In this document: positions 35,973 through 62,680 of the stretch, one piece after another
Layout: each line of letters begins with the position of its first letter
Numbering within the stretch: the first letter of the stretch is position 1
Virus record (IMG/VR): IMGVR_UViG_3300021959_010405
Location: 1 to 64,000 of that record
Strand: one strand, 5' to 3'
Origin: a virus
DNA length: 64,000 bases
Notes under the pieces: model-generated
Databases searched by the model: none
What the model saw: only the letters and a program-made list of their open reading frames with translations
What the model was told of the DNA's origin: nothing
Program-made: the position numbers and the translations under genes

Positions 35973-36000
35973 ATTATAAAGGAGATTAATAAAATCTCAA
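35973..36000 (-). promoter_or_regulatory. sigma70-like promoter of primase
   Basis: TTGAGA-N16-TATAAT, 7 nt before ATG. Confidence 0.6.
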
Positions 36001-36049
36001 CAAAATATTATGATATTTGGGAGATCGTATCCCGTACTAGCAGCAAAAC

Positions 36050-36346
36050 TTAGTCGTCGTGGCTAGCTCTCCATATGAGATCTTCCCACTTATTAAGGAG
36101 TTCACCCATCACAACTTGAATCTCTTCAAAGTCGCCATCATAGTTAAGTCCTGGGCCACCGCGGGTTTTATTGATATGTTTATTTAAATTGGATCCCTTT
36201 CTTAATACATTTGAAAGAGCGTCCACCGCCCTAGTAACATCATCTACCGACATATTGTTTAAGGCTTCGGCAAGGATTTTAAGCTTATACTCTTTAGCGC
36301 TTATTTTTTTATAATTTTCAAAAATTATTTTTGATTCATTATTCAT
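36050..36346 (-). CDS. Small late protein with MNNESKIIFENYKK leader
   Basis: TAAATA-ATATT-ATG; leader shared with 36394-36786 and 50922-51644. Confidence 0.7.
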   Translation of the reverse strand: MNNESKIIFENYKKISAKEYKLKILAEALNNMSVDDVTRAVDALSNVLRKGSNLNKHINKTRGGPGLNYDGDFEEIQVVMGELLNKWEDLIWRASHDD

Positions 36347-36378
36347 AATATTATTTAGTTGTTTGGGCGTTTTTTTTT
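36308..36378 (-). repeat. Promoter+leader cassette copy A
   Basis: aaaaaaaaacgcccaaacaacTAAATAatattATGaataatgaatcaaaaataatttttgaaaattataaa. Confidence 0.8.
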
Positions 36379-36393
36379 AAATAAAAATAGTAT

Positions 36394-36786
36394 TTAAGCA
36401 TCGGCCATGCCTTGGCCTGCCATATCCATCCAGAGATGGTAAGCAAAAGTACCCTCTTCGTGAGGGTTGTTACCTTCAAGACCACCAGGCTTTGGGAGAT
36501 GGTATCCCATACCAGCGTCATAACCAAGACCGTATGCGCCGATAAAATCTTTGTGGTCGCGAGCAATCTTGTCAAACATCGCAAACTGCTTAAGGTCAAG
36601 CGGTTTCATACTTTGGTCAAAATCCTCTTTAGTTGCACTGATCCTCTTTGAATTGTCGAGAAGTTCCTGCATACCTTCTTCGTCAGTAGGGACTTCAATC
36701 GTAGACTCGGTAATGCCTTCAATCTTAGTCTCTTTATTGTTTATTTTTTTGTAATTTTCGAAAATTAATTCTGAGTCTTTATTCAT
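36394..36786 (-). CDS. Small late protein with MNKDSELIFENYKK leader
   Basis: TAAATA-ATGTT-ATG; acidic body. Confidence 0.7.
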   Translation of the reverse strand: MNKDSELIFENYKKINNKETKIEGITESTIEVPTDEEGMQELLDNSKRISATKEDFDQSMKPLDLKQFAMFDKIARDHKDFIGAYGLGYDAGMGYHLPKPGGLEGNNPHEEGTFAYHLWMDMAGQGMADA

Positions 36787-36816
36787 AACATTATTTAGAG
36801 ATTTAGGTGTTTTTTT
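36748..36816 (-). repeat. Promoter+leader cassette copy B
   Basis: aaaaaaacacctaaatctcTAAATAatgttATGaataaagactcagaattaattttcgaaaattacaaa. Confidence 0.85.
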
Positions 36817-36856
36817 AAAAAAATAGTAATAATGTTTAAATTAACGACCGTAGTAT

Positions 36857-37237
36857 TTAATATATTCCGATCTCCTTAAGACCTTCTTCAATTTTGCTCT
36901 TGATAAAACTCTCTCCAACACCAGGATTGCGGCGAGCGATATCCCGAGTCTCGCTTTCGACAAAGTGAACAATGGACTCAACCGGAGCGTCGCCAGATTC
37001 AACAATTTCTGCTAGACTCTCAACTACGGACTCGATCTCGTTTTTAAGATCTTCGTTCATATCATATTTTTCTCTAATTTCAACAATACCTTTGCGAATA
37101 AAAGCTCCGGACTGAGGATCGATCCAATGAGCTTCAACAACAACCTTATCAGGAAGGTCGTTTTCAACTAATCTAGGAGCGACTGGTTGACCGCTTATAG
37201 GGGAAGGTATATTTACAGGTCGTACAAACTGATTCAT
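36857..37237 (-). CDS. Hypothetical late protein
   Basis: TAAATA-AGTGT-ATG; 126 aa. Confidence 0.65.
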   Translation of the reverse strand: MNQFVRPVNIPSPISGQPVAPRLVENDLPDKVVVEAHWIDPQSGAFIRKGIVEIREKYDMNEDLKNEIESVVESLAEIVESGDAPVESIVHFVESETRDIARRNPGVGESFIKSKIEEGLKEIGIY

Positions 37238-37285
37238 ACACTTATTTATGTAAAACTATGCAAATAACTTACTAATTTGGAGAAG

Positions 37286-39058
37286 TTAACGCCGACGACG
37301 ACCACGCCTTCTAGTCTCGTCATCAATATTCGGGTCCGAATCATTTAGCTTCTTTGGGCTCTTACCAGGATTGCTCGAGTCAACCCCGTCGTAGTTGTTA
37401 CCATGACCGTTATTTTGTTTAAGAGCTGCATCTTCCTCGTCAGTCAAATTTCTAGAGCAATCAATCGAGCCGACGTCAGTCTCAACCTCCTCATAAAAAC
37501 TGACCAGAAATGCTAGATCTTGAAGATCGAACCCACTGCTACTTACATCCGTATGGGTCAACTCGACCAAGTAAATCACATCCCTCGAGCCGATCTTTAT
37601 CCTACCTTCCGAATCGAGAAATGGCAGAAGGAAGGACTCGATCGAGGGCTGCTGATACAGGGGCGTTGTTGTCGGAGGGACATCACCATTCCGAAGGGCC
37701 CTTACATTTTGTGAAACCGAGCGGGAGTCGAACGTTGAACTCCAATACCCGTCATGGCGTACGTAGCGTCCACTGAAATCGAGAGTGTCTCCGCTAGCCA
37801 ACTTTGTCGACCAAACAATCTTGTTTGGATTAATACGATCATTCGTATCAAAGAAAAAGCTTTTTGAGGAACCTCCATTCTGACTCACCCTTCCTTGCGT
37901 AGGTACCCATTCCCAGTGAACAACTTTATCACGCCAATTCTTCCAAACTCTCTTAACAGAGGCGCCAAGTACCCTAACATCAGCGAAGACGCAACGATCA
38001 GCTCGGACCGTTCCTGTATTTTCAATGGACACAATATCCGAAACAGCCTCAGGAACAGTAACATTCCACGATAGTGTTGGGTGAGTACCCGCTTGAACTT
38101 GAGTCGGGCTAGCAATCAATGTACCAACGGGGATGATCGGAGATTCTTCCTGTCCCAACATTAAAGCTGGTACTGCTGTCAGCATAATGAATATTAAGGC
38201 AAATAATTTACTAATAGTATTATTTAAAACGCTTTTCATAAAGAAAACGTCATGCCATTTACTTTCTTGCTTAAGAATACCGTTAAGATTAAATTTTTCG
38301 CAGATATTTTTAAACGTCTTGAAGTTAGGCTCAAATTCTGCATCAGGAATCTGACTATCATAAAACTTATACTCATCTACCCACATCTCATTGTGACTAT
38401 TATCTAGATCAATAAGCTCTCTATTTTTATCAACAATATCTTGTTGTTCTTGTGTCAGTATCTTTTCTCCTTTGATAATAGCAAGAGCTCTTTTATTACC
38501 AAACCCCTCTACGCCTTCAATATTGTCTGACTTATCACCAACAATACACTTATACTCACAAAATCTATTCGGATGCATGCCATATTTCTCATACATTGTG
38601 GGAATATCAAACAATATCTTTTTAATTGGTGAAAATACTTTAGTTTCTGCAGAAACTAATTGTAAAAGATCTGTATCCGCAGAAATAATGACATTCTCGC
38701 CTGGAAGCTTTTTTGATAGCCAGAAAATAATATCATCTGCTTCACCTCTCTTAGGATATACATTAATAATACCTAGTGACTCAAATAGATTCTCAATAAC
38801 ACTGGTAAGTTCATGGACCTGCGCATTATATTCATTATCTCTTGTTTCCTTATACACAGAATCACCTTCCTTTCTGAAAGCTACCTCTGAACTCTTACGC
38901 ATATCCCATGCGCAGTATATCTTTGTTGGTTCAAACTTTTCTACATAGGATTTAATAGATGTCAACACAATAGAGAGGTGATTTACACCACCCCTACTAT
39001 TTGATACCCAGTAGGCTCTATGTACAAGATTATTACCGTCAATTATTAGATTTTTCAT
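37286..39058 (-). CDS. rnh: T4-type RNase H (5'-3' exonuclease) fused in frame to a secreted-type domain
   Basis: LIIDGNN, CAWD, YKETR, EADD, SADTDLLQL, GDKSDNIEGVEGFG. No stop before a hydrophobic segment and a ~285-aa unrelated domain. Start set at MKNLIID (39058). Confidence 0.85.
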   Translation of the reverse strand: MKNLIIDGNNLVHRAYWVSNSRGGVNHLSIVLTSIKSYVEKFEPTKIYCAWDMRKSSEVAFRKEGDSVYKETRDNEYNAQVHELTSVIENLFESLGIINVYPKRGEADDIIFWLSKKLPGENVIISADTDLLQLVSAETKVFSPIKKILFDIPTMYEKYGMHPNRFCEYKCIVGDKSDNIEGVEGFGNKRALAIIKGEKILTQEQQDIVDKNRELIDLDNSHNEMWVDEYKFYDSQIPDAEFEPNFKTFKNICEKFNLNGILKQESKWHDVFFMKSVLNNTISKLFALIFIMLTAVPALMLGQEESPIIPVGTLIASPTQVQAGTHPTLSWNVTVPEAVSDIVSIENTGTVRADRCVFADVRVLGASVKRVWKNWRDKVVHWEWVPTQGRVSQNGGSSKSFFFDTNDRINPNKIVWSTKLASGDTLDFSGRYVRHDGYWSSTFDSRSVSQNVRALRNGDVPPTTTPLYQQPSIESFLLPFLDSEGRIKIGSRDVIYLVELTHTDVSSSGFDLQDLAFLVSFYEEVETDVGSIDCSRNLTDEEDAALKQNNGHGNNYDGVDSSNPGKSPKKLNDSDPNIDDETRRRGRRRR

Positions 39059-39296
39059 TTTTGTCGTATTGTTTTTTTGATACTTTATAGACATATCTTG
39101 GAACTCTTTCAACCATATTAACGATGCCAGATTCTATACCATCGTCAAATGTTTTACAGTCGATTGTTCTATTTTCCATTAATGGTATCGATAAAAAATT
39201 ATATTGAGGTTCCTTTTTTTCTTTTCCACAATATATCCACATTTCACCAGCATAACTACCAGTTTCAATTGCGTATATTTCTCTTTCTTTTGGCAT
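39039..39296 (-). CDS. Hypothetical protein
   Basis: 85-aa ORF in a tightly packed operon. Confidence 0.6.
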   Translation of the reverse strand: MPKEREIYAIETGSYAGEMWIYCGKEKKEPQYNFLSIPLMENRTIDCKTFDDGIESGIVNMVERVPRYVYKVSKKQYDKNEKSNN

Positions 39297-39297
39297 T

Positions 39298-39717
39298 TTA
39301 CAATTCCGGAGGAAGCTGTCGTGAAAAATATTTAGTTACAAGTTTTTGTAAGGACATTCCCAGAGCATCTGTTTCCATAGCTGATTTAGCCTTTATAATT
39401 TCAACCGGATCTCCGTTAAAATCAAAACCTATAAGTATAAAAGATGAAATAAACTCTTCAACAGTCGAAGATAATGCAATCTTACAATTCCTAGTATATT
39501 TTTTTTCCTTGGATACGTTTTTCAATGCTTCTACTAGCATCTCTTGAAAGACCTCTTCATCAACCCCGTCAATATCTTCTGAATCTATATAAATTTCGTA
39601 TTCTTCCTCCGGAAAGCTTTCAGACTTTTTTTTATTATTAGATATATCAGGTTTTTTCTTGTTCTTACTACCTTTGGGTCGTCCTCTTTTACGTTTCTTG
39701 GGGTTCTGATCCTCCAT
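39298..39717 (-). CDS. AT-hook-containing protein
   Basis: KRKRGRPKGSKNKK followed by an acidic stretch; TATAAATA 6 nt upstream. Confidence 0.65.
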   Translation of the reverse strand: MEDQNPKKRKRGRPKGSKNKKKPDISNNKKKSESFPEEEYEIYIDSEDIDGVDEEVFQEMLVEALKNVSKEKKYTRNCKIALSSTVEEFISSFILIGFDFNGDPVEIIKAKSAMETDALGMSLQKLVTKYFSRQLPPEL

Positions 39718-40072
39718 TAGATATATTTATATCAGAACCCTTAAAAAATCGACTTTTATCAGACGCAGATTGCTTGACCCCCGATGTAATGAGTTTTTCA
39801 ACGATAATTTCTATTGATGATGTCTTTAGCATAGTGTTTTTTGCAAACAATTTGCCCCCATCGTCGAAATGAAATACTACCTCGCCTTTAACGAATGGGT
39901 CATTCATACAAGTAATAAATAAGCTCGTGTCTCCAGGATCGACCAATATAGTCCATCTCCTAGGATCGTCTTTTTTATAGTCTTGGAAGATTCTTAAAAC
40001 AATAAAGTCATTGTCTCTAAGACGCTTTATGAAATATCCGGGCGTATAAATTTTGTTTTTTGTATTTTTCAT
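39689..40072 (-). CDS. Hypothetical protein
   Basis: 127-aa ORF coupled to gp45. Confidence 0.6.
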   Translation of the reverse strand: MKNTKNKIYTPGYFIKRLRDNDFIVLRIFQDYKKDDPRRWTILVDPGDTSLFITCMNDPFVKGEVVFHFDDGGKLFAKNTMLKTSSIEIIVEKLITSGVKQSASDKSRFFKGSDINISNGGSEPQET

Positions 40073-40800
40073 GCTACTACTGAAGTTACAATGTATTGTA
40101 AGATAGATTGATTTGTTGTAATTTTAAATTGAACGATACCATATTCATTATTAATGCTGACGTCAGTATTTAAATTAAGAGCAGAAAAAGAACGCACAGC
40201 ATCTAACATTAGAGGTATAGGTTCAGTTATCGGAGGGCCGTTATAATTATCTACAACGCAGAAGGTAAACATATCGCTGTTATCAATAGTCCTATCAGTC
40301 AATTCAGCATATATACTGTTTTCTTGCGTATAAAGATATATTTTATTAACATCGCCTGCGATTGAGGAGCTTTTAACGAGCTGATTGATAACTTGACTCT
40401 CTATTAGAAAATTAACATCATACTCGAACTCGTTAATTTTATCTAAATTAAGCTTAGGGACCGTAAGAATGCCATCTTCAAACAAATGAAATCTAAATTT
40501 AATATTATTTGATTTATATTGTATATTGTTTGAATTAATTTTAAGACTAACTTCATTATCATCAATAATTTTTAGTGAACTAACTAATTTATCAATATTA
40601 GGCACATTAATTTGAAATTCCTCTTCAACGTTAGAGGCTAACATATATTTTGAATATAATACTGTCGTATTATCTATCGATGATACTAAGCAACTTATTT
40701 CATTTCCGGAAACTTTAAGTATTGCGGTTTCGGAAAATCGATTTATAGGCTTTAAGAAATTTTGTATAAAGCCATCCTTGTCTTGTAGATTTAAATCCAT
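40069..40800 (-). CDS. gp45: Sliding clamp (gp45-like)
   Basis: 243 aa with two-domain clamp-like spacing; NIDKLVSSL and KFRFHL..GIL; replication-cluster context next to gp32. Confidence 0.7.
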   Translation of the reverse strand: MDLNLQDKDGFIQNFLKPINRFSETAILKVSGNEISCLVSSIDNTTVLYSKYMLASNVEEEFQINVPNIDKLVSSLKIIDDNEVSLKINSNNIQYKSNNIKFRFHLFEDGILTVPKLNLDKINEFEYDVNFLIESQVINQLVKSSSIAGDVNKIYLYTQENSIYAELTDRTIDNSDMFTFCVVDNYNGPPITEPIPLMLDAVRSFSALNLNTDVSINNEYGIVQFKITTNQSILQYIVTSVVA

Positions 40801-41355
40801 TTACTTTTTTTTAGCGACCTTTTTAGTAGAGGGTTTAGTAGCTTTTTTCGCGGTAGGTCTTTTGACTGCTTGGAGCTCTTCCACTATAGATAATACCTTA
40901 TTAAGTTTATTATTCAACAAGTTAATTTCGCCTAAAATAATATTTGTCTGACCATTAGGTTCAGTAAAATCAAACTCTAATTGATCTGGATCGATTTGAT
41001 TTGTTACCGGTTGTACATTATTAGCTGGTTGTACATTATTAGCTGGTTGTATAGGTGGTTCAGTAACATTGCTTACTCCCTCAACGGGTTCAATTCCTAA
41101 ACTCTCCAGGGGCGCGTCGTATGGTATCATCTGCGCCGCTACATCTACCCCTCCCGGTAGACCATGAGGGAGCGTCTGGGAGGGAGTAGACGATGCAAAT
41201 TTGGCATCGATTTCGGAAGCTACTTTAGTTATTAAAGTTTCATTATTTTGCTTTGATACTGGGACTACAGTTCCAGAATCAATTTCCTTAGATTTATTCA
41301 TTATAGATCCAAGGAAATTTGCAATTGCTGCCTTTTCGTTTTGCGAATTATCCAT
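40801..41355 (-). CDS. Hypothetical protein
   Basis: Start at ATG 41355, 1 nt after the gp32 stop; contains QPANNV repeats and a DQLEFDF motif. Confidence 0.6.
   Translation of the reverse strand: MDNSQNEKAAIANFLGSIMNKSKEIDSGTVVPVSKQNNETLITKVASEIDAKFASSTPSQTLPHGLPGGVDVAAQMIPYDAPLESLGIEPVEGVSNVTEPPIQPANNVQPANNVQPVTNQIDPDQLEFDFTEPNGQTNIILGEINLLNNKLNKVLSIVEELQAVKRPTAKKATKPSTKKVAKKK
41007..41050 (-). repeat. 18-bp coding tandem repeat (QPANNV)
   Basis: ggttgtacattattagct repeated on the + strand. Confidence 0.8.
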
Positions 41356-41356
41356 A

Positions 41357-42223
41357 TTAATCATCGATACCAGCAAGAAGCTCAGCGACAATGGAATCAT
41401 CATCATCAGTAGCTGTATCTGTCGCTGCCGGTGCACTGTTTGTAACGGGCACTGTATTAACTGCAGGAGATGGGTTAGCTTCGTGAACCGTAGGAGTAGA
41501 ATAACTATCGGAAGATGATTCATTTACAAGATAGTGCTCTTGGAACATTTTTTCGAGCTCCTCGTATGACTTAACCTGAAAGACCTCGTCAAGTACATGT
41601 GTATTCTTGTAGATTTCTTCAATCCTACTATCAGATAACCCAAGATCGCTCTTCGACCCTGTAAACCGAGAAGAAACGTAGGTTGGATATTCACCCTGTG
41701 ATTCGACTTCAATTTTTAGACTAACACCGTTAGATCCAAGATCAAAAATACGAGGACCAAACTCATCACTATCCTCACCATCGATAGCCCTGCGGATAAT
41801 TTTATCTAGCTGCTTACCATAACGAATAATTTTAACTTCACCGTTATTATCCGGATTTTCAGTATCGTCTACTACATAGGCGTTAACAAGCCACTTTTCC
41901 GCACGACGGACAGATTTAATCTTCTCTTTTTCATCGTCAGTACCGTGTTTGTAAATACGATATCGCGCTTCTAGAATAGGGTCACGCTCTCCAAACGATT
42001 GAGGAGAAATAGACTGAACATATTGACCGGTCGCGAAAGACTCCCACCCAACTGTATAGTAGTGAAAGAAACTCTTTTCTGGAGCTTCCACGTTAGGCAG
42101 AAGCCTAACTGTATATGTATTGCCGGATTTCATAGAAAGAATATCGGCATAACTATTTCGCTCTTCTTGCTTAGAGAGAGCGCCTTTAATGCTATCAAAC
42201 ATAGATGAATTGAATGTACTCAT
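41357..42223 (-). CDS. gp32: Single-stranded DNA-binding protein
   Basis: VRLLP, FFHYY, LVNAYVVDD, NNGEVKIIRYGKQL, IFDL, YPTYVSSRF, acidic tail. Confidence 0.9.
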   Translation of the reverse strand: MSTFNSSMFDSIKGALSKQEERNSYADILSMKSGNTYTVRLLPNVEAPEKSFFHYYTVGWESFATGQYVQSISPQSFGERDPILEARYRIYKHGTDDEKEKIKSVRRAEKWLVNAYVVDDTENPDNNGEVKIIRYGKQLDKIIRRAIDGEDSDEFGPRIFDLGSNGVSLKIEVESQGEYPTYVSSRFTGSKSDLGLSDSRIEEIYKNTHVLDEVFQVKSYEELEKMFQEHYLVNESSSDSYSTPTVHEANPSPAVNTVPVTNSAPAATDTATDDDDSIVAELLAGIDD

Positions 42224-42236
42224 ATTTTGTATCTTT

Positions 42237-42264
42237 ATTATAGGTTATCTTAGGTTATTTTCAA
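42237..42264 (-). promoter_or_regulatory. sigma70-like promoter of gp32
   Basis: TTGAAA-N16-TATAAT; the spacer holds ATAACCTA twice. Confidence 0.65.
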
Positions 42265-42876
42265 CTTGGTTTTTATTTGTTTTATTAGGTTGTTATATTT
42301 GCTAGAGTTTAAACATTTAGTTCTTGCAAAATCTATTCTATCGAAAAAGTCATCACCGCACATTAGCTTAGTAATATCTTTATCGCATTCTAAAATTATT
42401 GTATTAAATTCGGAAAAGGAAATTAGCGCATTTATCCAGGTTTTTCGCTCCATTAGGTGTAGGAGACATTTATACTGATTACCATCCTTTAGATTAAAAT
42501 ATTCCGTAATTGTTAATTTATTGTTGTTAATATAATCTCTTATAAAAACAAACGATTTAGCGGTCCGTGTTAGAGATTCGGCGCTGTCAGGGGAAAGAGA
42601 TTCTATATGCTTCATATACTTAACATAAGCATTCATGGCCTTTGCAGTTGTATAGAAATCTAAATTTACGTTTAAACTAGCATCCTCAAAAAATGGTGCA
42701 TAAAAAAAATCTTTAATATTTATATGAGGATATTTGAGTAATTTTTTAGATATAGCCTTGCATGGGACTAATTTATCTTCCGGAAAATTATCGAAATTTG
42801 TTCTCGCTTTCCAGGGCTTATTTTTTATCGAGCGTGTTGTAATTAGGTATTGGTTATAAACAGCTCGTTCATGCAT
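42250..42876 (-). CDS. Possible helicase loader (gp59-like)
   Basis: Immediately upstream of gp32, as in T4; ~208 aa; VYNQYL N-terminal helix. Similarity is weak. Confidence 0.45.
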   Translation of the reverse strand: MHERAVYNQYLITTRSIKNKPWKARTNFDNFPEDKLVPCKAISKKLLKYPHINIKDFFYAPFFEDASLNVNLDFYTTAKAMNAYVKYMKHIESLSPDSAESLTRTAKSFVFIRDYINNNKLTITEYFNLKDGNQYKCLLHLMERKTWINALISFSEFNTIILECDKDITKLMCGDDFFDRIDFARTKCLNSSKYNNLIKQIKTKLKIT

Positions 42877-42878
42877 TG

Positions 42879-43178
42879 TTATTTTATTACCTGCGATGGC
42901 GCGCATTTATTTAAATATTTTGAAATATACTTACTTTTACTTAGTGTTGGATCGTATTCGATAAATCTCGCAAACGTATCGTAGTCATTATCGATACCCG
43001 TCATATATTGGAATAAATTTCTATAGTTTTTATTCTCCAATAATAATAAGAAAATATTCGGTAAATTCAACTTTTTATTATGTAAAATACAAATAAAACT
43101 ACAAAAACATAAAAGCAAATGATCGCTTTCTACAAAGTTTATACTGTCGATAGGGTTAAATTGATTTTTCGGGGTCAT
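42879..43178 (-). CDS. Hypothetical protein
   Basis: 99-aa operonic ORF. Confidence 0.55.
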   Translation of the reverse strand: MTPKNQFNPIDSINFVESDHLLLCFCSFICILHNKKLNLPNIFLLLLENKNYRNLFQYMTGIDNDYDTFARFIEYDPTLSKSKYISKYLNKCAPSQVIK

Positions 43179-44050
43179 ATTTTTTTAAGTTTTTTAGTAA
43201 AATTCATAAACTGTTCAGTAATATAACCTCCCGCTGATTCGGCATGCCCTCCCCCGTTCGCGAGTTTTTTCGCTATTTCATTCATAGGGAGTGTGCACTT
43301 ATCTGAACGTCTAAATGAAACTGTACCGCTGTTTGGGTTTACCACAATACCAATATCTGCGTTATATGTAGAAATAATATTTTTAGCTATATCATTAATA
43401 CCAAAACTAGCTATAGTTGAAACTACTCGACGAGGCTTTTCTCCAATATTAATATCCCCTACATGTATTTCTATTTTTGAAAGAATTTCTTTAAGTTTTT
43501 TATTATATATATTAATTGAATTTTTTTGCTGTCGAGAAAATCCTGAAAATCCGTTATGAAAACTATCAATAAATTTTTGAACCCTATCCCCAGTTAGACT
43601 CCAATAGAGTCTATTTAAATCCTCCGACATTGGATATTTTAGTTCGTTACTATCGTAGTCATCTATTAGATTTATAAGGAGTTTTTGCTCCTTAAATGCA
43701 TTAATAGAATCCTTATAAGTATCATATATTAATTTTGTAGTAGATCCGCACTTCTTAATAAGAGTATTGCATTTACTATATCTATTAGATTCTAAGATGT
43801 GAGTGTCATGATGATCTATAATGAAGATGTTCTTCTGATCTACAATATCAATGTTAGAGCTTACATCTAGATCACATATAAAAATTTTCTGAAAGTTATG
43901 ACCTTCATGACGATACCAATTTTCGAAATCCTTACGAAAATTACGAGATGTAGTTATTTTACTAGGCAATGTTCTTTTAGCGAACCAAGAAAGGGCTAAA
44001 ATAGAACCTACACCATCTAAATCTACATCTGACCAAACAAATAGCGACAT
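43175..44050 (-). CDS. DHH-family phosphoesterase
   Basis: SDVDLDG, ICDL, IIDHH, DDYD and GGGHAESAGG (DHHA1). Confidence 0.9.
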   Translation of the reverse strand: MSLFVWSDVDLDGVGSILALSWFAKRTLPSKITTSRNFRKDFENWYRHEGHNFQKIFICDLDVSSNIDIVDQKNIFIIDHHDTHILESNRYSKCNTLIKKCGSTTKLIYDTYKDSINAFKEQKLLINLIDDYDSNELKYPMSEDLNRLYWSLTGDRVQKFIDSFHNGFSGFSRQQKNSINIYNKKLKEILSKIEIHVGDINIGEKPRRVVSTIASFGINDIAKNIISTYNADIGIVVNPNSGTVSFRRSDKCTLPMNEIAKKLANGGGHAESAGGYITEQFMNFTKKLKKI

Positions 44051-44082
44051 TTACAATATAATTATATTAATTATTGTAATAA

Positions 44083-45414
44083 TCAACTATCGGTAAGCAT
44101 TCTTAAGCTACTATAAATATCGTTAGATTCGTCTGTTTCAGATATCATATCTTCTTCATCGAATTCGCTTAACGTTAAGGTAGTAAAGTCAATAGAAAAG
44201 CGATTAGACCCTACCGCTCTACCGAATCGATTTTTCATTATACCTGCATGTATTGTTTGAAATTCTATATCCTCTTCATCCTGCCATAATCCCATAATAA
44301 AGTCTGCAGTTGCAGCAACACCAACCGATTCAGATAAGCTATCAAGACCAGGATTATCTTCATCAAAACCACCACGATTTAGCTGAGTAGCGGTAATGAT
44401 AGGGCAGTTATAAATGTAACTCATAGCCCTAAGCTGCTCTGTTACATGCTTAACTCTTTCATATAGGTTTGTACCTGATGGTGAAGATAATAAGTTCAAA
44501 TAATCAATTACGATAGCATCAAATTTAATTCCTGACGATTGTAATTTTTTTATAAACCCTGACAATTGTTTAGGGGTAATAGTCGAAGGAGGAAACTCCT
44601 TTATATAAATTTTACGTCGAGGATTTTTCTCGTGTATCTTGAGCATATCGTTTTTCAACGCGGCAGAAGAATTAGCCAATTCAGATAAAGGTATAGCTGT
44701 AGCATTAGAGCATAATCTTCTTGCATAGATCATCTCCGACATTTCAAGAGATATAACTAGTACATTATTACCAGCTGCGGATATATTATTTGCAATATTT
44801 CCTAAGAATATACTTTTACCAACGTTAGGTCGGCCTGCATATATATAAATCGATCTACCGTCTCTCAAAAATCCTCCTCCAAGAGTTTTGTCCATCCACT
44901 CCCACCCGGATGAAATTACAGGCTCGACTTTATTAAGATCTTCAACAATACGATTAATGTCTGTAAATAATTCAATACCATGATCTGTAGTGAGATTTAC
45001 ATTACATGCTTTTTCAAATTTATCTAGAATTAAAGAGGTATCTGCACCCCCATCACCAACAGTCTTGGCTGTTTCAAGAAGAGTATTGTAGACATTACGT
45101 TCTTTAATAAACTGCTCTGTATTCAGTATTAACTCATCTTGATTATAATTAGTATCTAATTTACTAAATTCTTCTACTACGGACTTAAACGATGTTCGAA
45201 GATCGTCTGTAGTTAATAAAGCCTTTACCTCTGTAATATTAGGGCATGTATTATTGCGATCATGAAAATCAGAGATAATACTAATTATATCCTTAATGTT
45301 TTTATTTTCAAAAATATCAGGCTGTAAAAAATCAATTACAGATGTAAGATAACCTTCATTAGTTAGCGAATGGAAAAGAATAATCTTTTCCATAAATTTA
45401 TGATCTATCTTCAT
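44083..45414 (-). CDS. gp41: Replicative helicase
   Basis: GRPNVGKS Walker A, SLEMSE, IVIDYLNL, TATQLNR, KNRFG. Confidence 0.93.
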   Translation of the reverse strand: MKIDHKFMEKIILFHSLTNEGYLTSVIDFLQPDIFENKNIKDIISIISDFHDRNNTCPNITEVKALLTTDDLRTSFKSVVEEFSKLDTNYNQDELILNTEQFIKERNVYNTLLETAKTVGDGGADTSLILDKFEKACNVNLTTDHGIELFTDINRIVEDLNKVEPVISSGWEWMDKTLGGGFLRDGRSIYIYAGRPNVGKSIFLGNIANNISAAGNNVLVISLEMSEMIYARRLCSNATAIPLSELANSSAALKNDMLKIHEKNPRRKIYIKEFPPSTITPKQLSGFIKKLQSSGIKFDAIVIDYLNLLSSPSGTNLYERVKHVTEQLRAMSYIYNCPIITATQLNRGGFDEDNPGLDSLSESVGVAATADFIMGLWQDEEDIEFQTIHAGIMKNRFGRAVGSNRFSIDFTTLTLSEFDEEDMISETDESNDIYSSLRMLTDS

Positions 45415-45419
45415 ACAGT

Positions 45420-45935
45420 TTAAGCCGCGTGCTTAGTCCAAGTAGCGAAGGGCTTATCCATTTTATAATATAGTTGATATTTTTCAACTGTAGGAAGAGA
45501 TTCAAAATTTGGCAGCTGCCTGCAATTCATGGTTTGACTAATCGCTACTGCGAAGGGAGTAAGCTCACCATCAGGTATGTGAGAATTTCCTATGTTGCTA
45601 TCACACCATTCAATAAATGGTCTAGTGAAATGTTCCTTACCAGGCCATCTACGTAATCTCTCGTCACACATTTCGAGTGCATGATTTATAAGCCATTTCA
45701 TATTAGACTTTGACTCAACTACCCATTTGCTGCAAGGGTGATTGCGATGTCTTTTAGCTTGTTTTCGTGGCTGACCGGTCGCGGTCCTAGGACAATCCGG
45801 ATGCTCTAGTTGTTCCGTTGTAAAACAATACGCTAACATTTGACCAGACTCGATAATCATTTTCGATCTTATGTGTTTATCACACATAAGTCTTGCGGCT
45901 TCTTTAGGATTGCTATCAAGTACAAATATATTCAT
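45420..45935 (-). CDS. Pyrimidine-dimer DNA glycosylase-like protein
   Basis: MNIFVLD..P..AA...CDKH..KMIIES.QML and H.NHPCSKW. Confidence 0.75.
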   Translation of the reverse strand: MNIFVLDSNPKEAARLMCDKHIRSKMIIESGQMLAYCFTTEQLEHPDCPRTATGQPRKQAKRHRNHPCSKWVVESKSNMKWLINHALEMCDERLRRWPGKEHFTRPFIEWCDSNIGNSHIPDGELTPFAVAISQTMNCRQLPNFESLPTVEKYQLYYKMDKPFATWTKHAA

Positions 45936-45941
45936 ATAATG

Positions 45942-45969
45942 AATATAATTTCATATGAGAAATAATCAA
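45942..45969 (-). promoter_or_regulatory. sigma70-like promoter
   Basis: TTGATT-N16-TATATT, 6 nt before ATG 45935. Confidence 0.55.
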
Positions 45970-45983
45970 TTTTTTTTTCAAAT

Positions 45984-46676
45984 TTAAGACCACTTTTCTA
46001 AAAACCACTTTTTACCAGCTTCCCACTCATTATCCGGATTAGTTAATCCTGGTGATTTATGAACAATAGGAATATCCCATACTCCTATTTTCTTTTTATT
46101 TTTATTACATTCAAGCGAAAAATCTAAATCATAATAATGAAATCTAGATGGATTATCCTCACTAAATCTGCATGACTCTAACACGCTAGGTGTAGTTGCA
46201 ATAAATACCCCATCAATAAGTAACACTCTTTCGTTTAGAGGGCCGAATGAGGTGTACATATAGGGCATTATATTATTAGAATCGGGAGATAAGCAGTGAG
46301 CTACACAACCTCTCCTCGATTCTGGAGGACCCATTAAGTGCCAAAGACCATATTCTATATTTGATACAGTAGTTGTACCTGCTACACCTACAACATCAAA
46401 CTGCTCAAATGCCTTATCTAATTTTCGATCTATGTTACCACAATTTATATATACATCATCATGTACAAATACTATAGCTGTATTATCGTCGTAATATCCC
46501 AAGCTCTCATCAATAAATTTATTATATTGAGCTGATAGTGATTTATCATTTGTATCAAACCTATAAATGTCATAATTCAAATTAGGGCATTCCTTCGATA
46601 TACTTGTCTCTAGTAACGTTTTTTTACTAGATTTGTTTTTAGTACAGATTACGAAAGATATATTTGTGATACTCAT
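45984..46676 (-). CDS. GT-A glycosyltransferase-like protein
   Basis: IVFVHDDV, VVGVAG, LIDGVFIA, FHYYDLDFSL. Confidence 0.8.
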   Translation of the reverse strand: MSITNISFVICTKNKSSKKTLLETSISKECPNLNYDIYRFDTNDKSLSAQYNKFIDESLGYYDDNTAIVFVHDDVYINCGNIDRKLDKAFEQFDVVGVAGTTTVSNIEYGLWHLMGPPESRRGCVAHCLSPDSNNIMPYMYTSFGPLNERVLLIDGVFIATTPSVLESCRFSEDNPSRFHYYDLDFSLECNKNKKKIGVWDIPIVHKSPGLTNPDNEWEAGKKWFLEKWS

Positions 46677-47371
46677 ATAAAGAAAGGGCTTTTATTTTTA
46701 AATTGTCCGACTAACACGGGACCTTTTGATGTTAACTCAAAAATCTTACCCTCTTTCAATTCTTCCCATTGGTTTTTACTATTAATAGAAGAAAAGTTCC
46801 CTCTATCGTCAGCAAACAATGTAGATCCCTGCCTCGCTATATAAACTTTTTTAGAATCGGTGTTGTATACCCAAACTGAAAATGTACCCTCAAGCTTAGC
46901 TAAAGCCTTTTCAATAGCAGTTACATGATTTACCTTTATTTTAGTAGATGATATGCTATTTGCCATGATAGGTATAAGTTTTGAATCAACTGATACTTTT
47001 ATACCATTGTTATATTCCTTAATTAAAGATTCCTGATTAGTAATCACTCCATTATGAGCAATTATCCATTCACCGATATGAAAAGGGTGTGTAGTCTCTT
47101 CACTCCATTTTCTATTAGACCCTGTAGGTGCTTGTAAATGACCTAAATATATATCAAACTTATCCGGTTCTAGTATTTTACTAATTTTATCTTGTTTACC
47201 TTCCCACCTCTTAACTTGGTATAGTTTTTTAATATTTTTTTTCTTGTTTGGAGAATAATTGAGTACATCATATATACCCATATAACTACCTCCCCACGCT
47301 CCTCTAATTTGATTCACGTCGTGAAGAACTTCAAACATTGATTTGTTAAAAGAACCAAATATCGCACACAT
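46673..47371 (-). CDS. Stand-alone class II (Ntn) glutamine amidotransferase
   Basis: N-terminal M-C-A-I-F-G, HPF, AHNGVI, DS, LEGTF; TATAAATA 5 nt upstream. Confidence 0.85.
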   Translation of the reverse strand: MCAIFGSFNKSMFEVLHDVNQIRGAWGGSYMGIYDVLNYSPNKKKNIKKLYQVKRWEGKQDKISKILEPDKFDIYLGHLQAPTGSNRKWSEETTHPFHIGEWIIAHNGVITNQESLIKEYNNGIKVSVDSKLIPIMANSISSTKIKVNHVTAIEKALAKLEGTFSVWVYNTDSKKVYIARQGSTLFADDRGNFSSINSKNQWEELKEGKIFELTSKGPVLVGQFKNKSPFFI

Positions 47372-47466
47372 AACCTTATTTATAAAAGAATTAGTTTAAA
47401 ACAAACTCCTCAAATTAATAATAAATATAATTCCTAAAAAATCCACTTGTTTGAATAAATATTTCT

Positions 47467-48942
47467 ATGAAGCCATGGCAAAATGATATTTTCAGCTTAT
47501 ATGTCGAACAAAGAGGTCGAGCAGGTCGCAATGTAGGTAAATACCACCCTAAATTAAAAGGAACTAGACAGGACGTTAGATCTGCAGGTCTTTCAGTTCC
47601 AAGTAGAGATGCTCCTAATTTTATTGCGACATTATTATATAATTTAGACATATTTGATGATGCAGAAGCTGACTCTATTATACGCGCGACATCATCTCCA
47701 GCACGGGGAGAGTCCTTAATGCAATCATTGGAGGCTCATTCCGACGAGATTATTAAACGTCAAGATGATATTTCTAATGCATACGAAGAGGAGTTAACAA
47801 AGTATGTAAATAGAGCTAAAATCAATAGAGGTCGTGGGGGTAAAGGTAGTAAAGGTCGTACAGAGAGATACGAAGCTCAGGCAGCTGCTATTGAAATAGC
47901 AAAGCAACAAAAAGAACTATTGAAGCAAATGAAGTCTCAAGGTGTTGATGCTGCTACGTCTATAGAGGATGCTATTTTAAATAGTATGGAGAGTACAAAA
48001 GACGAGACTCTAGTCTCTATGCAAATAAGAGGTCTTACAGATGCGGATGGTTTAATTGATACAATCGAAAAGTTAGGTGTTGATAAATCTGATATTGGCG
48101 TTGAAAGGGTTTCGGGGGGAGTTGTTGTAGATTTCTTTATATCGACAAATTCTCGTATAGGTAGGGATTTCGAAAGTATTCCTCCTACAGAAATTGATGA
48201 TATGTTTAGTAGATTTAGTTCCTCCGGTGAGGTTGTTGTGGAGGTTCTGCCTCCTGATGATATTGCTGATGCCATATCTGGTTTAAAATCAAGTTTATCT
48301 CAACCAGATAGAAAATCGAAAGGCGAAACTTACGACGAGCCAGAAAAGGAAGATAGCGAGGTAGAGTTTGACCCTAAAACATCGGGGGAAGTACCAACTG
48401 TTACGTCAGTAGATGATGATGAAGACTTTAGACCTACAGAAGATGATTTTGATGAGGTAGGTGTTGCATATGACCCGTCGTTTAGTCGTGAGGATGATTA
48501 CGACGTAGACTCGGAGGATATGAACTATGATCCAATGAACCCATATGATGAGGATCGGTTCGAAGATGAAGAGGGTGAGCGCGAATGCGAAGAATGCGAC
48601 GGAGAGGGAGGTAAAGAATATCCATATCAAGGAGAAATGGAATGGGAAACATGTAGATCTTGCAAAGGATCTGGTAAAACTAATCAACCATCACGCTACG
48701 GTGAAGATCGATATGAAAACGAAGAGGCAAAGCCAGATTATATTGATATCGATGGGGATGGTGACAAAGAGGAGCCGATGAAAAAGGCTGCTAAGGAGAG
48801 AGAAGAAGAAAACAATGAAGAAAATATCAATGAAGGGCACAAAATGTCACCCCAGCAAGCAAACCAATGGATGACTCAACAGCGAAACGAGAGAATGCGC
48901 AGTTATATGAAGCATGACGAGCGCTGGAAAGGATATTATTAA
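47467..48942 (+). CDS. Acidic late protein (probable internal head protein)
   Basis: TAAATA-TTTCT-ATG; D/E-rich C-half with two CxxCxGxG motifs and DIDGDGDKEE. Confidence 0.65.
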   Translation: MKPWQNDIFSLYVEQRGRAGRNVGKYHPKLKGTRQDVRSAGLSVPSRDAPNFIATLLYNLDIFDDAEADSIIRATSSPARGESLMQSLEAHSDEIIKRQDDISNAYEEELTKYVNRAKINRGRGGKGSKGRTERYEAQAAAIEIAKQQKELLKQMKSQGVDAATSIEDAILNSMESTKDETLVSMQIRGLTDADGLIDTIEKLGVDKSDIGVERVSGGVVVDFFISTNSRIGRDFESIPPTEIDDMFSRFSSSGEVVVEVLPPDDIADAISGLKSSLSQPDRKSKGETYDEPEKEDSEVEFDPKTSGEVPTVTSVDDDEDFRPTEDDFDEVGVAYDPSFSREDDYDVDSEDMNYDPMNPYDEDRFEDEEGERECEECDGEGGKEYPYQGEMEWETCRSCKGSGKTNQPSRYGEDRYENEEAKPDYIDIDGDGDKEEPMKKAAKEREEENNEENINEGHKMSPQQANQWMTQQRNERMRSYMKHDERWKGYY

Positions 48943-48957
48943 TTTAAAAAAAAGATT

Positions 48958-50322
48958 ATGACTAATGATACAGATCTAATTTTTGAAAGATATTGCAATA
49001 TACAAGAAGGTATTTTTCAGCGAGGGAGAGCCAAACTAAACGCATTCGGTGAAACTGATGAAAGTCTTCAGAATTTAATTAACCAATATACAAAAAAAAT
49101 AGGTAAACATGTAGGAGATTTAGAAGCTGATTTAAAAACATTTAAAGGAAGTCTTCAGCCAATAACTCAAGAAAAAATGGCGATTTTACTTAATAATTTA
49201 AATAGCGCAGGAGTCGAAAGTGCTCAATCCGCACTAGGTAAAATAGGTCATATGTTAGGTAGATTCGTCGGCGCTGCAGCTCCTGCAGCTGCAGTCACTG
49301 CATTAGCTGCTGGTACTGGTGGTTTAGGTGGAATAGCTACTGGAGCACTCGCAGGCGCAACTCGAGGGCTTCAACGTAATTTAACTAGGACTGATATCGA
49401 TACTAAAAATAAATTTGGAAATGTTGCAAAAACTACCGCTGCCGGCGCTGCGATTGGAGGTGTAAGTGACTTTGTTGCAAGCAAGTTAGCTAATGCACCT
49501 GATGCAGGATTTGAACCAGCAGGGCCACCTAGCGAGTTAGCTAATGCACCTAGCGAGTTAGCTAATGCACCTGATGCAGGATTGGACCTAGCAGGTGCAC
49601 CTAGCGAGTTAGCTAATGCACCTGATGCAGGATTGGACCTAGCAGGTGCACCTAGCGAGTTAGCTAATGCACCTCTACAGGATACCATTGGTGCAATGCC
49701 GGAGTTACCTCCTATGAATCCCGACCTTTTCCAAAATTTGCACAATTCTTCGTATGATCCAAATAGTATAGTAGATCAGGCTAAGATGTTGTTGCAACAA
49801 CAGGCGGAGCAGCAAGGAATAACTGATCCAAACGAAATTGCTAATTTCGTTTATAGAAATGGTGGTATTGAAACTCTAGATAGTGTAGGGGCTGAGGAAA
49901 TTATTAATAACTTTAATTCTACAGTGGACCAAATTGCAAGTCAAGCTATTGAACCGGGAATCACGTTTTCGGAATTACCAACAGATCTTAAGTCTAGCGC
50001 GGAAGGTCTCTATAATCAAATGATAGAAAAGGGTTATTCAGCTGAAGATGCATCAAATGAATTGAGTGGCATTAATGATATATTCGCCGGCACTAAGAGG
50101 GTATCAGGAGATGACGCTGCCGTGGAAGTGGTTAAAGATTATGTAAAAGGAGTCGCTGAGGATATAGCCAGCCCAGGAACTTCTAATAACACTCTTAATG
50201 TACTTCAAAACGCGGCGAGGCGCGGCAGGCTGACTGATGAAATGAAACAACTTTTTCTTAATAAAGCTATAGAAAGAGGAGCTACTGACGGAGAGTTACA
50301 GGCTATTATGAATTTAAATTAA
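48958..50322 (+). CDS. Gly/Ala-rich protein with tandem repeats (probable head/ejection protein)
   Basis: MTNDTDLIFERY..IQE-G leader; hydrophobic GA-zipper; SELANAP repeats. Confidence 0.65.
   Translation: MTNDTDLIFERYCNIQEGIFQRGRAKLNAFGETDESLQNLINQYTKKIGKHVGDLEADLKTFKGSLQPITQEKMAILLNNLNSAGVESAQSALGKIGHMLGRFVGAAAPAAAVTALAAGTGGLGGIATGALAGATRGLQRNLTRTDIDTKNKFGNVAKTTAAGAAIGGVSDFVASKLANAPDAGFEPAGPPSELANAPSELANAPDAGLDLAGAPSELANAPDAGLDLAGAPSELANAPLQDTIGAMPELPPMNPDLFQNLHNSSYDPNSIVDQAKMLLQQQAEQQGITDPNEIANFVYRNGGIETLDSVGAEEIINNFNSTVDQIASQAIEPGITFSELPTDLKSSAEGLYNQMIEKGYSAEDASNELSGINDIFAGTKRVSGDDAAVEVVKDYVKGVAEDIASPGTSNNTLNVLQNAARRGRLTDEMKQLFLNKAIERGATDGELQAIMNLN
49480..49674 (+). repeat. 51-bp/21-bp coding tandem repeat
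   Basis: agcgagttagctaatgcacct occurs 5 times (first copy has one mismatch), 3 of them extended by a 30-bp block. Confidence 0.92.
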
Positions 50323-50338
50323 CCCCATTAATACATTA

Positions 50339-50893
50339 ATGAAAAAATATGACACAGATATTATTTTAGAGAAGCAATTATCACAAATTGATGAAGGTCT
50401 TCTAGATCGCATAAAAGCTAAAGCTTCTGGAGCTAAAGCTTTCCTCACAACTGACATGGGTAAAGGATTAGGTGGTATGAGTCAAAACTATCAAGAGACT
50501 GCCCAATCAAAGCTTATTGATAATAAGATTGAAAAAATACATAAAATTATATTAGATTTAGAAACAGATCTAATGAAAACTGCAGGAATGAGTACTGAGA
50601 CTTTAAAAAATCAATACCCTCAGATTTATCAGCAGTTACAGTTTTTAAGAAATTCAGTATCTCTTAACCCGCAACAACAGCAAGCCCCGCAACAACAGCA
50701 AGACCCGCAACAACAGCAAGACCCACAGCAACGCTCATTTAACCCCGGAGATGTAATTAAATACACTAGTACAAGAAACCCTCAAGGGGAGCAGGCTGAA
50801 GTTGTAGAGGTTTTGCAAAACGGAAATATACAGGTTAAGCCAGTAGGCAAATCTAATCCTGTTTTTGCTATATCCCCAAATCAAATTCTATAA
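50339..50893 (+). CDS. Probable head protein with PQQQQ repeats and SH3-like tail
   Basis: QIDE-GLLDRIKAKASG; C-terminal FNPGDVIKY...AEVVEVLQNG. Confidence 0.65.
   Translation: MKKYDTDIILEKQLSQIDEGLLDRIKAKASGAKAFLTTDMGKGLGGMSQNYQETAQSKLIDNKIEKIHKIILDLETDLMKTAGMSTETLKNQYPQIYQQLQFLRNSVSLNPQQQQAPQQQQDPQQQQDPQQRSFNPGDVIKYTSTRNPQGEQAEVVEVLQNGNIQVKPVGKSNPVFAISPNQIL
50669..50731 (+). repeat. 18-bp coding tandem repeat (PQQQQA/D)
   Basis: ccgcaacaacagcaag(c/a)c, 3.5 copies. Confidence 0.88.
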
Positions 50894-50960
50894 AAAAACA
50901 CCTAAAGACCTAAATAATATTATGAATAAAGACTCAGAATTAATCTTTGAAAATTATAAA
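50892..50960 (+). repeat. Promoter+leader cassette copy C
   Basis: aaaaaaacacctaaagaccTAAATAatattATGaataaagactcagaattaatctttgaaaattataaa. Confidence 0.85.
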
Positions 50961-51644: not shown

Positions 51645-51649
51645 TAAAT

Positions 51650-62234: not shown

Positions 62235-62680
62235 AAATCACTATCGTAAAAGTCACCTTCTTCTAGATTAGATATATTTTTTGTATAAACTTTACCGTCG
62301 CTGGAATCAATCATATGTCTTTCGTAAACTTCTTCGCGATATTCGGTTTCTGCTTGATGCAATCTTTTTTCCTTTTTAATTCTATTAATAAACGATCTAA
62401 AAGCTATAGTAGTAAAATAGGAGAAGGGATTATATTTTGATGTTACATCGAAATTTTTATTTTTTAAAGCTGCATACATCTTCACGATTGCATCACCTAC
62501 CATCTCATCTCTATACGTATAATCTTTAAATTTAGAATTGTAGCTTAAGCCTGTCGCTATTTTATTAATGCATTCTCCGAGATAATCTTCGAATTTATCG
62601 CTTTGATAGAAACGGGCTATTGCATCCTTAAACTCTTTAGGTTCTACATAATAATTGCTCTTATCTTTAGTCTTTGCCAT
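62231..62680 (-). CDS. gp55: Late-transcription sigma factor
   Basis: YV..KEF, YTYRDEMVGDA, NPFSYFTTIAFRSFINRIKKEK. Confidence 0.9.
   Translation of the reverse strand: MAKTKDKSNYYVEPKEFKDAIARFYQSDKFEDYLGECINKIATGLSYNSKFKDYTYRDEMVGDAIVKMYAALKNKNFDVTSKYNPFSYFTTIAFRSFINRIKKEKRLHQAETEYREEVYERHMIDSSDGKVYTKNISNLEEGDFYDSDL

Follow-up and report, generated by a model that had tools for sequence, protein, structure and literature searches.

A block of about 70 to 100 nt that recurs three times in a virus genome from IMG/VR (record IMGVR_UViG_3300021959_010405, here G000; 117,429 bp, rated 55% complete by CheckV) is best explained as a start signal of late genes joined to a peptide that addresses proteins to the capsid, the counterpart of the capsid targeting sequence (CTS) of phage T4. 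We give this reading a probability of roughly 0.7. The stretch under study, called the window, comprises the first 64,000 nucleotides of the record. In each copy a TAAATA late-promoter-like motif is followed by 5 nt, an ATG and the codons for MN(K/N)(D/E)S.(L/I)IFENYK, a peptide referred to here as leader 1. A preliminary description of the window had reported copies at 36308-36378 (minus strand), 36748-36816 (minus strand) and 50892-50960 (plus strand) and had proposed a portable module, combining expression with a capsid address, that recruits genes by recombination. All three copies were found in place, within the following cassettes:

Cassette A, 36280 to 36379, minus strand: A-tract, CTAAATA, 5-nt spacer, ATG and leader codons MNNESKIIFENYKKI...
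Cassette B, 36720 to 36822, minus strand: A-tract, ACACCTAAAT, CTAAATA, 5-nt spacer, ATG and leader codons MNKDSELIFENYKKI...
Cassette C, 50886 to 50968, plus strand: begins immediately 3' of the stop codon of the upstream gene.

A 20-nt core, CTAAATAATRTTATGAATAA, occurs exactly three times in the entire record, all three in the window. Allowing as many as three mismatches raised the number of matches to seven against 0.19 expected, and none of 100 shuffles reached seven. Anchored at the ATG, the three copies are pairwise 72 to 80% identical over positions −40 to 0 and 85 to 92% identical over 0 to +39, and identity drops to a background of 17 to 38% beyond −40 and beyond +60 to +100. The repeat finder returned the same relationships as inverted repeats, one between A and C (I1; 36282-36379 and 50889-50986, 98 nt, 79%) and one between B and C (I2; 36740-36822 and 50886-50968, 83 nt, 86%), and added a fourth, weaker copy at 48948-49002 (I3), at the start of gene D. 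The near-identity of B and C noted earlier was confirmed, the mismatches numbering 7 of 69 nt rather than the "about 8" first given. Within the 13 leader codons B and C differ at three positions, every one synonymous, and the likeness between A and B continues to about codon 24. In one DNA run (X8) the assembled contigs stop at 50929 and resume at 50954, inside cassette C, which is the pattern that a repeated or polymorphic block would give.

The genes behind the cassettes, together with the other genes of the island that ends with gene C, are:

Gene A, 36050 to 36346, minus strand: 98 aa, leader 1 and cargo A, with a second L-x-E site, LAE, at residues 25-27.
Gene B, 36394 to 36786, minus strand: 130 aa, leader 1 and cargo B, with an ITE site at residues 25-27.
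Gene F, 47467 to 48942, plus strand: 491 aa and strongly acidic, opening the plus-strand island, TAAATA 5 nt before the ATG.
Gene D, 48958 to 50322, plus strand: 454 aa, diverged leader MTNDTDLIFERY, without a TAAATA of its own, 38.6 bits with the position-specific scoring matrix (PSSM) of the leader.
Gene E, 50339 to 50893, plus strand: 184 aa, leader-like start MKKYDTDIILEK with one extra residue, I-L-E at residues 9-11.
Gene C, 50922 to 51644, plus strand: 240 aa, MNKDSELIFENYKSI..., leader 1 and an Ala/Gly/Gln-rich cargo, convergent with queC.

Downstream of the leader the three cassette genes are unrelated, as the preliminary description had held: BLASTP aligned the products of A, B and C only over the first 23 to 36 residues, and after removal of the first 20 residues no pair among them reached E<1. 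When the 602 ATG starts of G000 with at least 50 codons downstream were scanned with the PSSM, four leaders scored 37 to 44 bits and all other starts 11 bits or less. I-F-E occupies residues 8-10 in all four, a test at the level of sequence and on a short motif. Gene F was considered as a further leader gene; its similarity to the leader is marginal (7.7 and −3.9 bits) and its membership was left uncertain. Gene D is probably cotranscribed from the TAAATA preceding 47467. Both D and E have a second L/I-x-E-type site at residues 15-19.

The result also bears on plain paralogy, the alternative singled out in the preliminary description, according to which A, B and C derive from one duplicated gene of which only the N-terminus is still recognisable. 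The adjacency of A and B and their likeness to about residue 36 would fit such an origin, as would a weak second motif and a low-complexity composition that D, E and C have in common; D and E are both marked by EG(L/I)(L/F)..(K/R)AK, and a BLASTP alignment of the two covers 79 aa at 35% identity (E 0.001, small database). Yet nothing reaches E<1 beyond the leader, homologues of A and B at 55 to 87% identity bear other N-termini, leader 1 precedes at least 33 further unrelated clusters, and DNA homology to a foreign module breaks sharply at the cassette, as detailed below. We conclude that the cargos are not paralogues and regard this origin as highly improbable. Two other candidates were rejected, namely a remnant of tandem duplication, because the cargos are unrelated once the leader is removed, and a signal peptide or membrane anchor, because the leader has no hydrophobic stretch.

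Database searches returned nothing usable on what the cargos do. Neither Pfam nor PHROGs yielded a match above threshold for any of A, B, C, D and E or for relatives on contigs L271, L265 and L161, and profile searches against PDB sequences gave only matches with E≥0.03. In the ESM Atlas there was no usable match for B and, for C, only sub-0.9 unnamed viral clusters. With 36000-40000 as the query, blastn returned no match among 50,697 phage records.

G000 codes for a Peptidase_S77, the gp21-type prohead protease (98 bits), and a Gp23 capsid protein (299 bits), as well as UvsX, a family B polymerase, gp46/47-like nuclease subunits, a DnaB-type helicase, a clamp loader and a gp32-like single-stranded DNA-binding protein. 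Its gp23 is about 33% identical to those of the best cultured phages, which are cyanomyoviruses. Near-identical DNA was present in estuary and marine metagenomes, where eleven runs held at least half of the sampled words; seven of these runs may represent the source sample itself. Soil, sediment and freshwater runs with a small share were excluded from this habitat evidence. Given the gene set, the low gp23 identity and the estuarine and marine DNA, G000 is a distant, uncultured aquatic (estuarine/marine) T4-like myovirus.

T4 late promoters have a TATAAATA-type −10 element that is read by the gp55-holoenzyme, with initiation a few bases downstream. A likely reader of the corresponding TAAATA motif is present in the window:

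gp55-like late sigma factor, 62231 to 62680, minus strand (phrog_234, E 4.3e-29).

TAAATA ends 3 to 10 nt before the ATG at 38 of the 122 predicted genes of G000, against about 1.1 expected from the density of the motif, and the spacing has its mode at 5 nt (21 genes). Tail, fibre, portal and protease genes are among those so preceded. Because TAAATA stands this close to the ATG at 38 of 122 genes, CTAAATA with 5 nt and ATG is, judged from the sequence, probably the general late-gene start of this phage and not particular to the three cassette genes. The promoter-like motif described for the cassettes is therefore upheld as a genome-wide start signal, probably a late one, in a phage that has a gp55-like sigma factor. 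The 5-nt spacing suggests that the late mRNAs concerned would be leaderless or near-leaderless. Examples in the window, at 8272, 24503, 33157 and 47467, have the motif ending 5 nt short of the ATG and are without a Shine-Dalgarno sequence.

Constant leader and variable cargo were also found across IMG/VR. A strict back-translated leader pattern recovered six further cargos, and a relaxed one, M-[NDKT...]-[NKT]-[DE]-x-x-[LIF]-I-F-E-x-Y, likewise back-translated, matched at least 118 stretches, with at least 128 starts on at least 121 loci. These include at least 114 distinct upstream-plus-protein combinations and at least 97 distinct complete proteins of 50 aa or more. All IMG/VR leader counts are lower bounds, and the 128 starts include duplicates from near-identical contigs. 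Single-linkage clustering of the complete proteins of 50 aa or more, with the first 14 residues trimmed off and a BLASTP cutoff of E≤1e-4, gave at least 38 cargo clusters, of which at least 33 come from IMG/VR and five are the singletons of G000. An in-frame stop lies upstream of the listed leader starts at a median distance of four codons, and within 20 codons in 123 of the 128; the starts can therefore be taken as true N-termini. One leader family of 302 aa had no tblastn match among the 50,697 phage records.

Whole-contig scans found four leader genes in G000, three in its relative G002 and six in G014. G002 (185 kb, 88% complete) is syntenic with G000, has a gp23 69% identical to that of G000 and encodes a Peptidase_S77. 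In G014 (229,717 bp, rated 100% complete) the leader genes score at least 21.8 bits against at most 8.4 for other starts, all six stand behind TAAATA, and the natural variants LIMEAY, TIFEQY and LLFEAY retain the glutamate. A Peptidase_S77 is encoded on 11 of 18 large leader-bearing contigs, including all six that are at least 66% complete.

The DNA around the leader behaves differently from the peptide. The 30 nt upstream of A, B and C are 80 to 87% identical to one another; the corresponding values are 47 to 57% within G002, 27 to 67% within G014 and 13 to 43% within multi-leader loci, and between genomes the mean is 48% and the maximum 63%. As far as these genomes and loci go, the near-identical promoter-plus-leader DNA block is peculiar to G000, and across phages the peptide is the conserved part. 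The earlier expectation that cargo varies behind a constant cassette thus held for the peptide across relatives and for the DNA block within G000.

If the block were mainly an RNA or DNA expression element, the late mRNAs would be leaderless or nearly so, the first codons would be retained for favouring initiation in the manner of a downstream box, and conservation of the peptide would be incidental. At 21 genes the motif ends just 5 nt from the ATG, which would leave the ribosome no 5' sequence other than the first codons; the leader codons are A/T-rich, and in G000 the 30 non-coding nucleotides are conserved along with the codons. The N-termini of the remaining 34 genes that have this promoter spacing are, however, unrelated, and across phages the amino acids are fixed while third positions and Leu codons vary. 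Among the listed matches, I8 is encoded by ATA, ATT and ATC in 31, 63 and 12 cases, F9 by TTT and TTC in 72 and 34, and the glutamate by GAA and GAG in 91 and 15; all six Leu codons occur at position 7. Synonymous codons vary freely, so the constraint acts on the peptide. TAAATA lies 3 to 12 nt upstream of 92 of the 128 listed starts and is not close at the remaining 36, gene D has the leader and no promoter, and the alternative leaders found on the same cargos also contain I-(L/F)-E. We therefore consider an expression element improbable.

The leader matches the CTS of the T4 internal proteins (Mullaney & Black 1996, as cited in PMC3012670) in architecture. In the T4 record AF158101 the products of ipII and ipIII open with MKTYQEFIAE|A, and the two genes do not differ at any base of the leader or of the preceding 13 nt; ipI opens with MKTFKEF...STITE|A. 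The leader of G000, MNKDSELIFE|NYK, likewise has 10 residues and ends in I-x-E. In sections 2.5-2.6 of PMC9026906, gp21 is said to cleave after L/I-X-E; the same review describes the first 10 residues of IPIII as sufficient for head targeting, with leader residues 4 and 7 mattering for targeting and 8 and 10 for processing. T-even internal proteins are portrayed in PMC3012670 and PMC12373910 as a diverse, injected anti-restriction set with only the leader in common. The resemblance extends to genetic context: in both systems a short N-terminal propeptide stands on otherwise unrelated, dispensable-looking proteins, several genes per genome carry it, and these occupy more than one locus in variable regions. 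The differences are a leader of the form MNKDS.LIFE.Y rather than MKTYQEFIAE, conservation of Y12 past the putative cut, and acidic to neutral instead of basic cargos. The start signal differs too, with TAAATA 5 nt from the ATG and no Shine-Dalgarno sequence here, and AAGGA before the ATG in the T4 ip genes. Finally, the clade considered here is uncultured and aquatic, with a gp23 about 33% identical to that of any cultured phage, and the function of its leader is the one that we infer from T4.

The gp23 homologues of G000, G002 and L271 retain an L-x-E in the N-terminal region where T4 gp23 has LTE|A, which fits a conserved protease specificity; of these sites only that of L271 aligns exactly with the T4 one. 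The gp23 propeptide also contains a conserved motif (I/M/L)(F/L)ENQE, seen as IFENQE at residues 36-41 in T4 and as MLENQE at about residues 45-55 in G000 (gene at 108102-109598). Comparing LIFENY with this motif, one could imagine that the leader mimics the core-binding segment of the capsid protein itself, which is speculation only.

A second known system resembles the present one in part. Ejection-protein propeptides of phiKZ-like giant phages (201phi2-1, SPN3US) are cut by a gp21-related protease, and according to section 3.2 of PMC9026906 many head-internal proteins undergo processing just after a glutamate that belongs to a short motif. That motif is S/A-x-E, however, and the passages of the review on these phages describe no single common 12-residue leader.

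Cargos A and B also occur under other leaders. Cargo B contains a conserved C-terminal domain (...LPKPGGLEGNNPH...AGQGMADA), and its homologues, 55 to 87% identical in the C-terminal 100 residues, have N-termini of several types. One is leader 1 or a close variant (MDKESNLIWESY), another is a 70-residue region starting MS(K/N)(I/T)Q.(F/L)I(D/N)AV.LGD and another reads M(K)(S/T)FDN.HD.LA.AAKEILEGN. The homologues of cargo A start MEDFNKKHDSLAEAAKEILDEN, a second leader type of the form M..F...HD.LA.AAKEIL(E/D). This second-leader pattern was found at nine loci, and in L271, L273 and L274 a B-type gene is directly followed by an A-type gene, the order seen in G000. At least three leader families can be distinguished: MNKDS.LIFE.Y, M..F...HD.LA.AAKEIL(E/D) and MS.IQ.FIDAV.LGD. 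The second and third were not found in G000, G002 or G014, and leader 1 was not found in 16 loci of the other clade.

In nine contigs the B/A homologues are flanked by the Portal_T4 and Peptidase_S77 genes, with those for the T4_CASP scaffold and Gp23 further downstream, and there both types bear the second leader. This slot is the position of T4 genes 67 and 68, which encode prohead core proteins, and as the best available evidence it suggests that A and B may be head-internal. Like gp67 and gp68, the homologues of the other clade occupy the portal-protease slot, and their N-termini contain I-(L/F)-E sites; they differ from the T4 proteins in the lack of significant sequence similarity and, in G000, in a location outside the head module, beside the primase gene. 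A likeness of the MS.IQ.FIDAV... N-terminal domain to gp67, noticed by eye, was dropped, as it was not significant in Smith-Waterman shuffles.

The exchange of leaders could be mapped on the DNA. Over the B-A region G000 and L271 are colinear, with 71% identity over 639 nt including 45 nt at 100% inside cargo A; the core proteins of G000 and the second clade are only about 30% identical. Identity between the two falls to 0.10-0.13 exactly from the B stop codon through the first 16 to 23 codons of A, and in B the blastn homology to cargo B relatives ends at about 36711-36722, around codon 22-25. In G000 the cassette occupies these gaps, and the copy most closely related to it stands before gene C, 14 kb away. 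The recruitment by recombination proposed at the outset is therefore borne out by one swap that is placed to the nucleotide, the homology to the foreign B-A module breaking at the cassette. On the simplest reading of these alignments, the B-A module would have moved between distant T4-like phages and both genes would have been given the resident promoter-plus-leader by recombination. The direction of transfer, into G000, is suggested by the youth of the cassette copies and by the absence of A and B in the nearest relatives.

Several observations weigh against a capsid address. The leader shares only 4 of 10 residues with MKTYQEFIAE (M1, E6, I8, E10) and is too short for a statistical test of homology, and L/I-x-E is a low-information motif. 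Y12 and often K13 are conserved past the proposed cut, so that the signal may be longer than E10 or the cut may lie elsewhere. T-even internal proteins are described as basic (PMC9026906), and the mature cargos of G000 are acidic to neutral, with isoelectric points of 4.4 to 6.9. Residues I8, F9, E10 and Y12 were fixed by the search pattern, which makes their invariance in IMG/VR circular; only the whole-contig scans of G000, G002 and G014 escape this circularity, and their PSSM was trained on pattern matches. On seven of the 18 large leader-bearing contigs, all at most 50% complete, there was no protease match. A phmmer comparison of T4 gp67 and gp68 with the B- and A-type proteins found nothing, and by Smith-Waterman alignment z was 1.8, with 122 of 2000 shuffles reaching the score. 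The head-module position of the pair is absent in G000, whose protease gene is preceded by a head-closure homologue. Three RNA-library runs each gave 1 to 3 short Logan contigs on 50300-51700 with partial cover; such contigs show no start, strand or level and may stem from DNA carry-over, and no conclusion on transcription was drawn from them. Packaging, cleavage and ejection are deduced by analogy and synteny.

The most serious competitor is a leader that is a real peptide signal for another address, such as a chaperone, the neck, baseplate or fibres, or a host structure after synthesis. It would accommodate the conservation of Y12 and K13, which suggests an epitope longer than a T4-type CTS, the lack of basic cargos, the presence of gene F without leader in the island, and a final location of the proteins for which the argument is one of analogy. 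The length of the leader and its I-x-E end nevertheless match the T4 CTS, the A/B homologues lie between portal and protease beside the scaffold and capsid genes, Peptidase_S77 accompanies the leader genes wherever a contig is complete enough, and the tail and fibre genes of G000 are without the leader. Taking both sides into consideration, we judge another address to be unlikely.

Under the preferred assignment as a late-gene start fused to a capsid address, (C)TAAATA with 5 nt and ATG would be read by RNA polymerase with the phage gp55-like sigma factor. The peptide M-N-(K/N)-(D/E)-S-x-(L/I)-I-F-E with x-Y-K would then bind the cargo to the scaffolding core during prohead assembly. The gp21-type protease would cut after the I-F-E glutamate or, in A and B, at the second L/I-x-E near residue 27, and the cargo would be freed inside the head and ejected with the DNA. 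Unrelated genes could sit behind the label because it is short and autonomous, and the three cassettes would be near-identical as DNA because recombination put copies of a resident cassette on each gene. The B-A pair, a prohead-core-type module of another T4-like clade, would have been relabelled in G000 by replacement of its start regions with the resident cassette. The portable module of the preliminary description is in this respect supported by the CTS-like architecture and the gp21-type protease, with encapsidation following by analogy.

Promoter-stem-loop (PeSL) cassettes of T4-type phages (Arbiol et al. 2010, PMC2839356; Comeau et al. 2014, PMC4122927) offer another comparison. As these papers present them, PeSLs are also short conserved regulatory blocks beside variable genes that serve as recombination substrates for modular shuffling, and according to PMC2839356 analogous elements were seen at T-even internal protein loci by Repoila et al. 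1994. They are, however, described there as wholly intergenic and as composed of an early sigma-70-type promoter and a stem-loop, whereas the block studied here has a late-type TAAATA and reaches 16 to 25 codons into the gene. Sigma-70-like sites were not enriched at the cassettes (6 against 4.2 expected; 10 against 10.5), and no terminator-like hairpin was found in any cassette. For these reasons an assignment as a PeSL element was rejected.

Both leader loci of G000 lie in hyperplastic, variable regions of the kind that holds T4-type internal protein genes. The island of gene C spans the interval between a 232-aa gene (46673-47371) and queC; the same slot in G002 contains a different leader-1 gene of 455 aa, and F, D, E and C had no tblastn match in G002. 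The A/B pair sits between the primase gene and a 126-aa gene. Neither gene is present there in the closest relatives (L038, L039 and L057; closest primase identities 74% and 60%), and a leader-like start within 6 kb of the primase was found at none of 80 related loci. Next to its primase gene, G002 carries a separate leader gene of 92 aa. The primase gene and a 340-aa gene (window 33932-35965) are inverted as a pair relative to L038, L039 and L057, and the A/B insertion adjoins one end of the inverted segment. Close by, a 5'-3' exonuclease (RNase H-like) open reading frame at 37286-39112 on the minus strand encodes about 600 aa, against about 288 aa in L038, L039, L057 and G002; its C-terminal 300 residues are an extension specific to G000.

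The principle is already known, being the logic of the T-even internal proteins (PMC3012670, PMC9026906, PMC12373910), a CTS on diverse proteins whose conserved start regions act as handles for recombination. What appears to be new is the family of leaders, how widely it occurs and the re-addressing of cargo across clades. A literature search of article texts found neither the leader family and its spread over dozens of unannotated cargo families nor the same module under clade-specific leaders with a mapped relabelling event, and the leader strings (LIFEAY, LIFENY and others) gave no relevant match. A broader proposal, to which we attach even odds, is that T4-like phages use clade-specific capsid address labels, that cargo crossing between clades is re-addressed via the resident cassette, and that the two-gene module of G000 represents such an event.

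If so, the 12-residue leader would be a tag by which the proteome that a large clade of uncultured aquatic phages packages, and probably injects, can be listed from metagenomes by sequence alone, with dozens of unannotated families already at hand. That proteome would include candidate anti-defence proteins and might include leucine-rich-repeat (LRR) proteins with a start MDPIFEAYK near gp23. T4 Ip1-3, according to PMC12373910, each block a different GmrSD enzyme, and the CTS is described in PMC3012670 and PMC9026906 as an engineering handle for loading foreign proteins into heads; the present leader would be a candidate cargo-loading tag if a member of the clade were cultured. The different leaders would also constitute a natural experiment on the co-evolution of address labels with the prohead core. 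The leader replacement mapped on an imported gene pair speaks directly for recruitment by recombination, a mechanism already proposed for T-even phages.

The LRR proteins are three tandem paralogues adjoining gp23 (G000 109653-111596, minus strand; locus L005) that start MDPIFE(A/V)YKQIL, which is the leader-1 core I-F-E-A-Y-K behind a shorter N-terminus. Among the best 120 homologues listed, 12 start MDPIFE-like and most others MIKL(L/I)DILENK or similar, with I-L-E at residues 7-9; the exact start pattern MDPIFE(A/V)YK matched no stretch in IMG/VR. From this short motif, the LRR proteins near gp23 may also be head-packaged. Elsewhere in G000, a gene at 69792-70112 (plus strand, 106 aa) is a shortened homologue of a leader-1 family of 176 to 195 aa (54 to 64% over 51 to 59 aa). 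It starts MSNENKDIVALYEK, in which M1, N3, E4, I8 and Y12 are kept and A replaces E10, so that its leader appears to have lost the cleavage glutamate.

Arrays of leader genes were seen on several IMG/VR contigs. L235 has four leader-1 genes, of 116, 84, 191 and 216 aa, with unrelated cargos and without a close TAAATA, and two-gene arrays occur in L131, L222, L224 and L233. Within the island of G000, genes D and E hold in-frame tandem repeats (window 49480-49674 and 50667-50732), in which units of 51 and 72 nt specify PSELANAPDAGLDLAGA and units of 18 nt specify PQQQQ(A/D). A 3-nt deletion at 50683 in one DNA-run contig indicates that repeat length may vary in the population. Finally, an 18-bp hairpin with a T-run at 51665-51703, just 3' of gene C and inside the 3' end of the convergent queC, is likely a bidirectional terminator.

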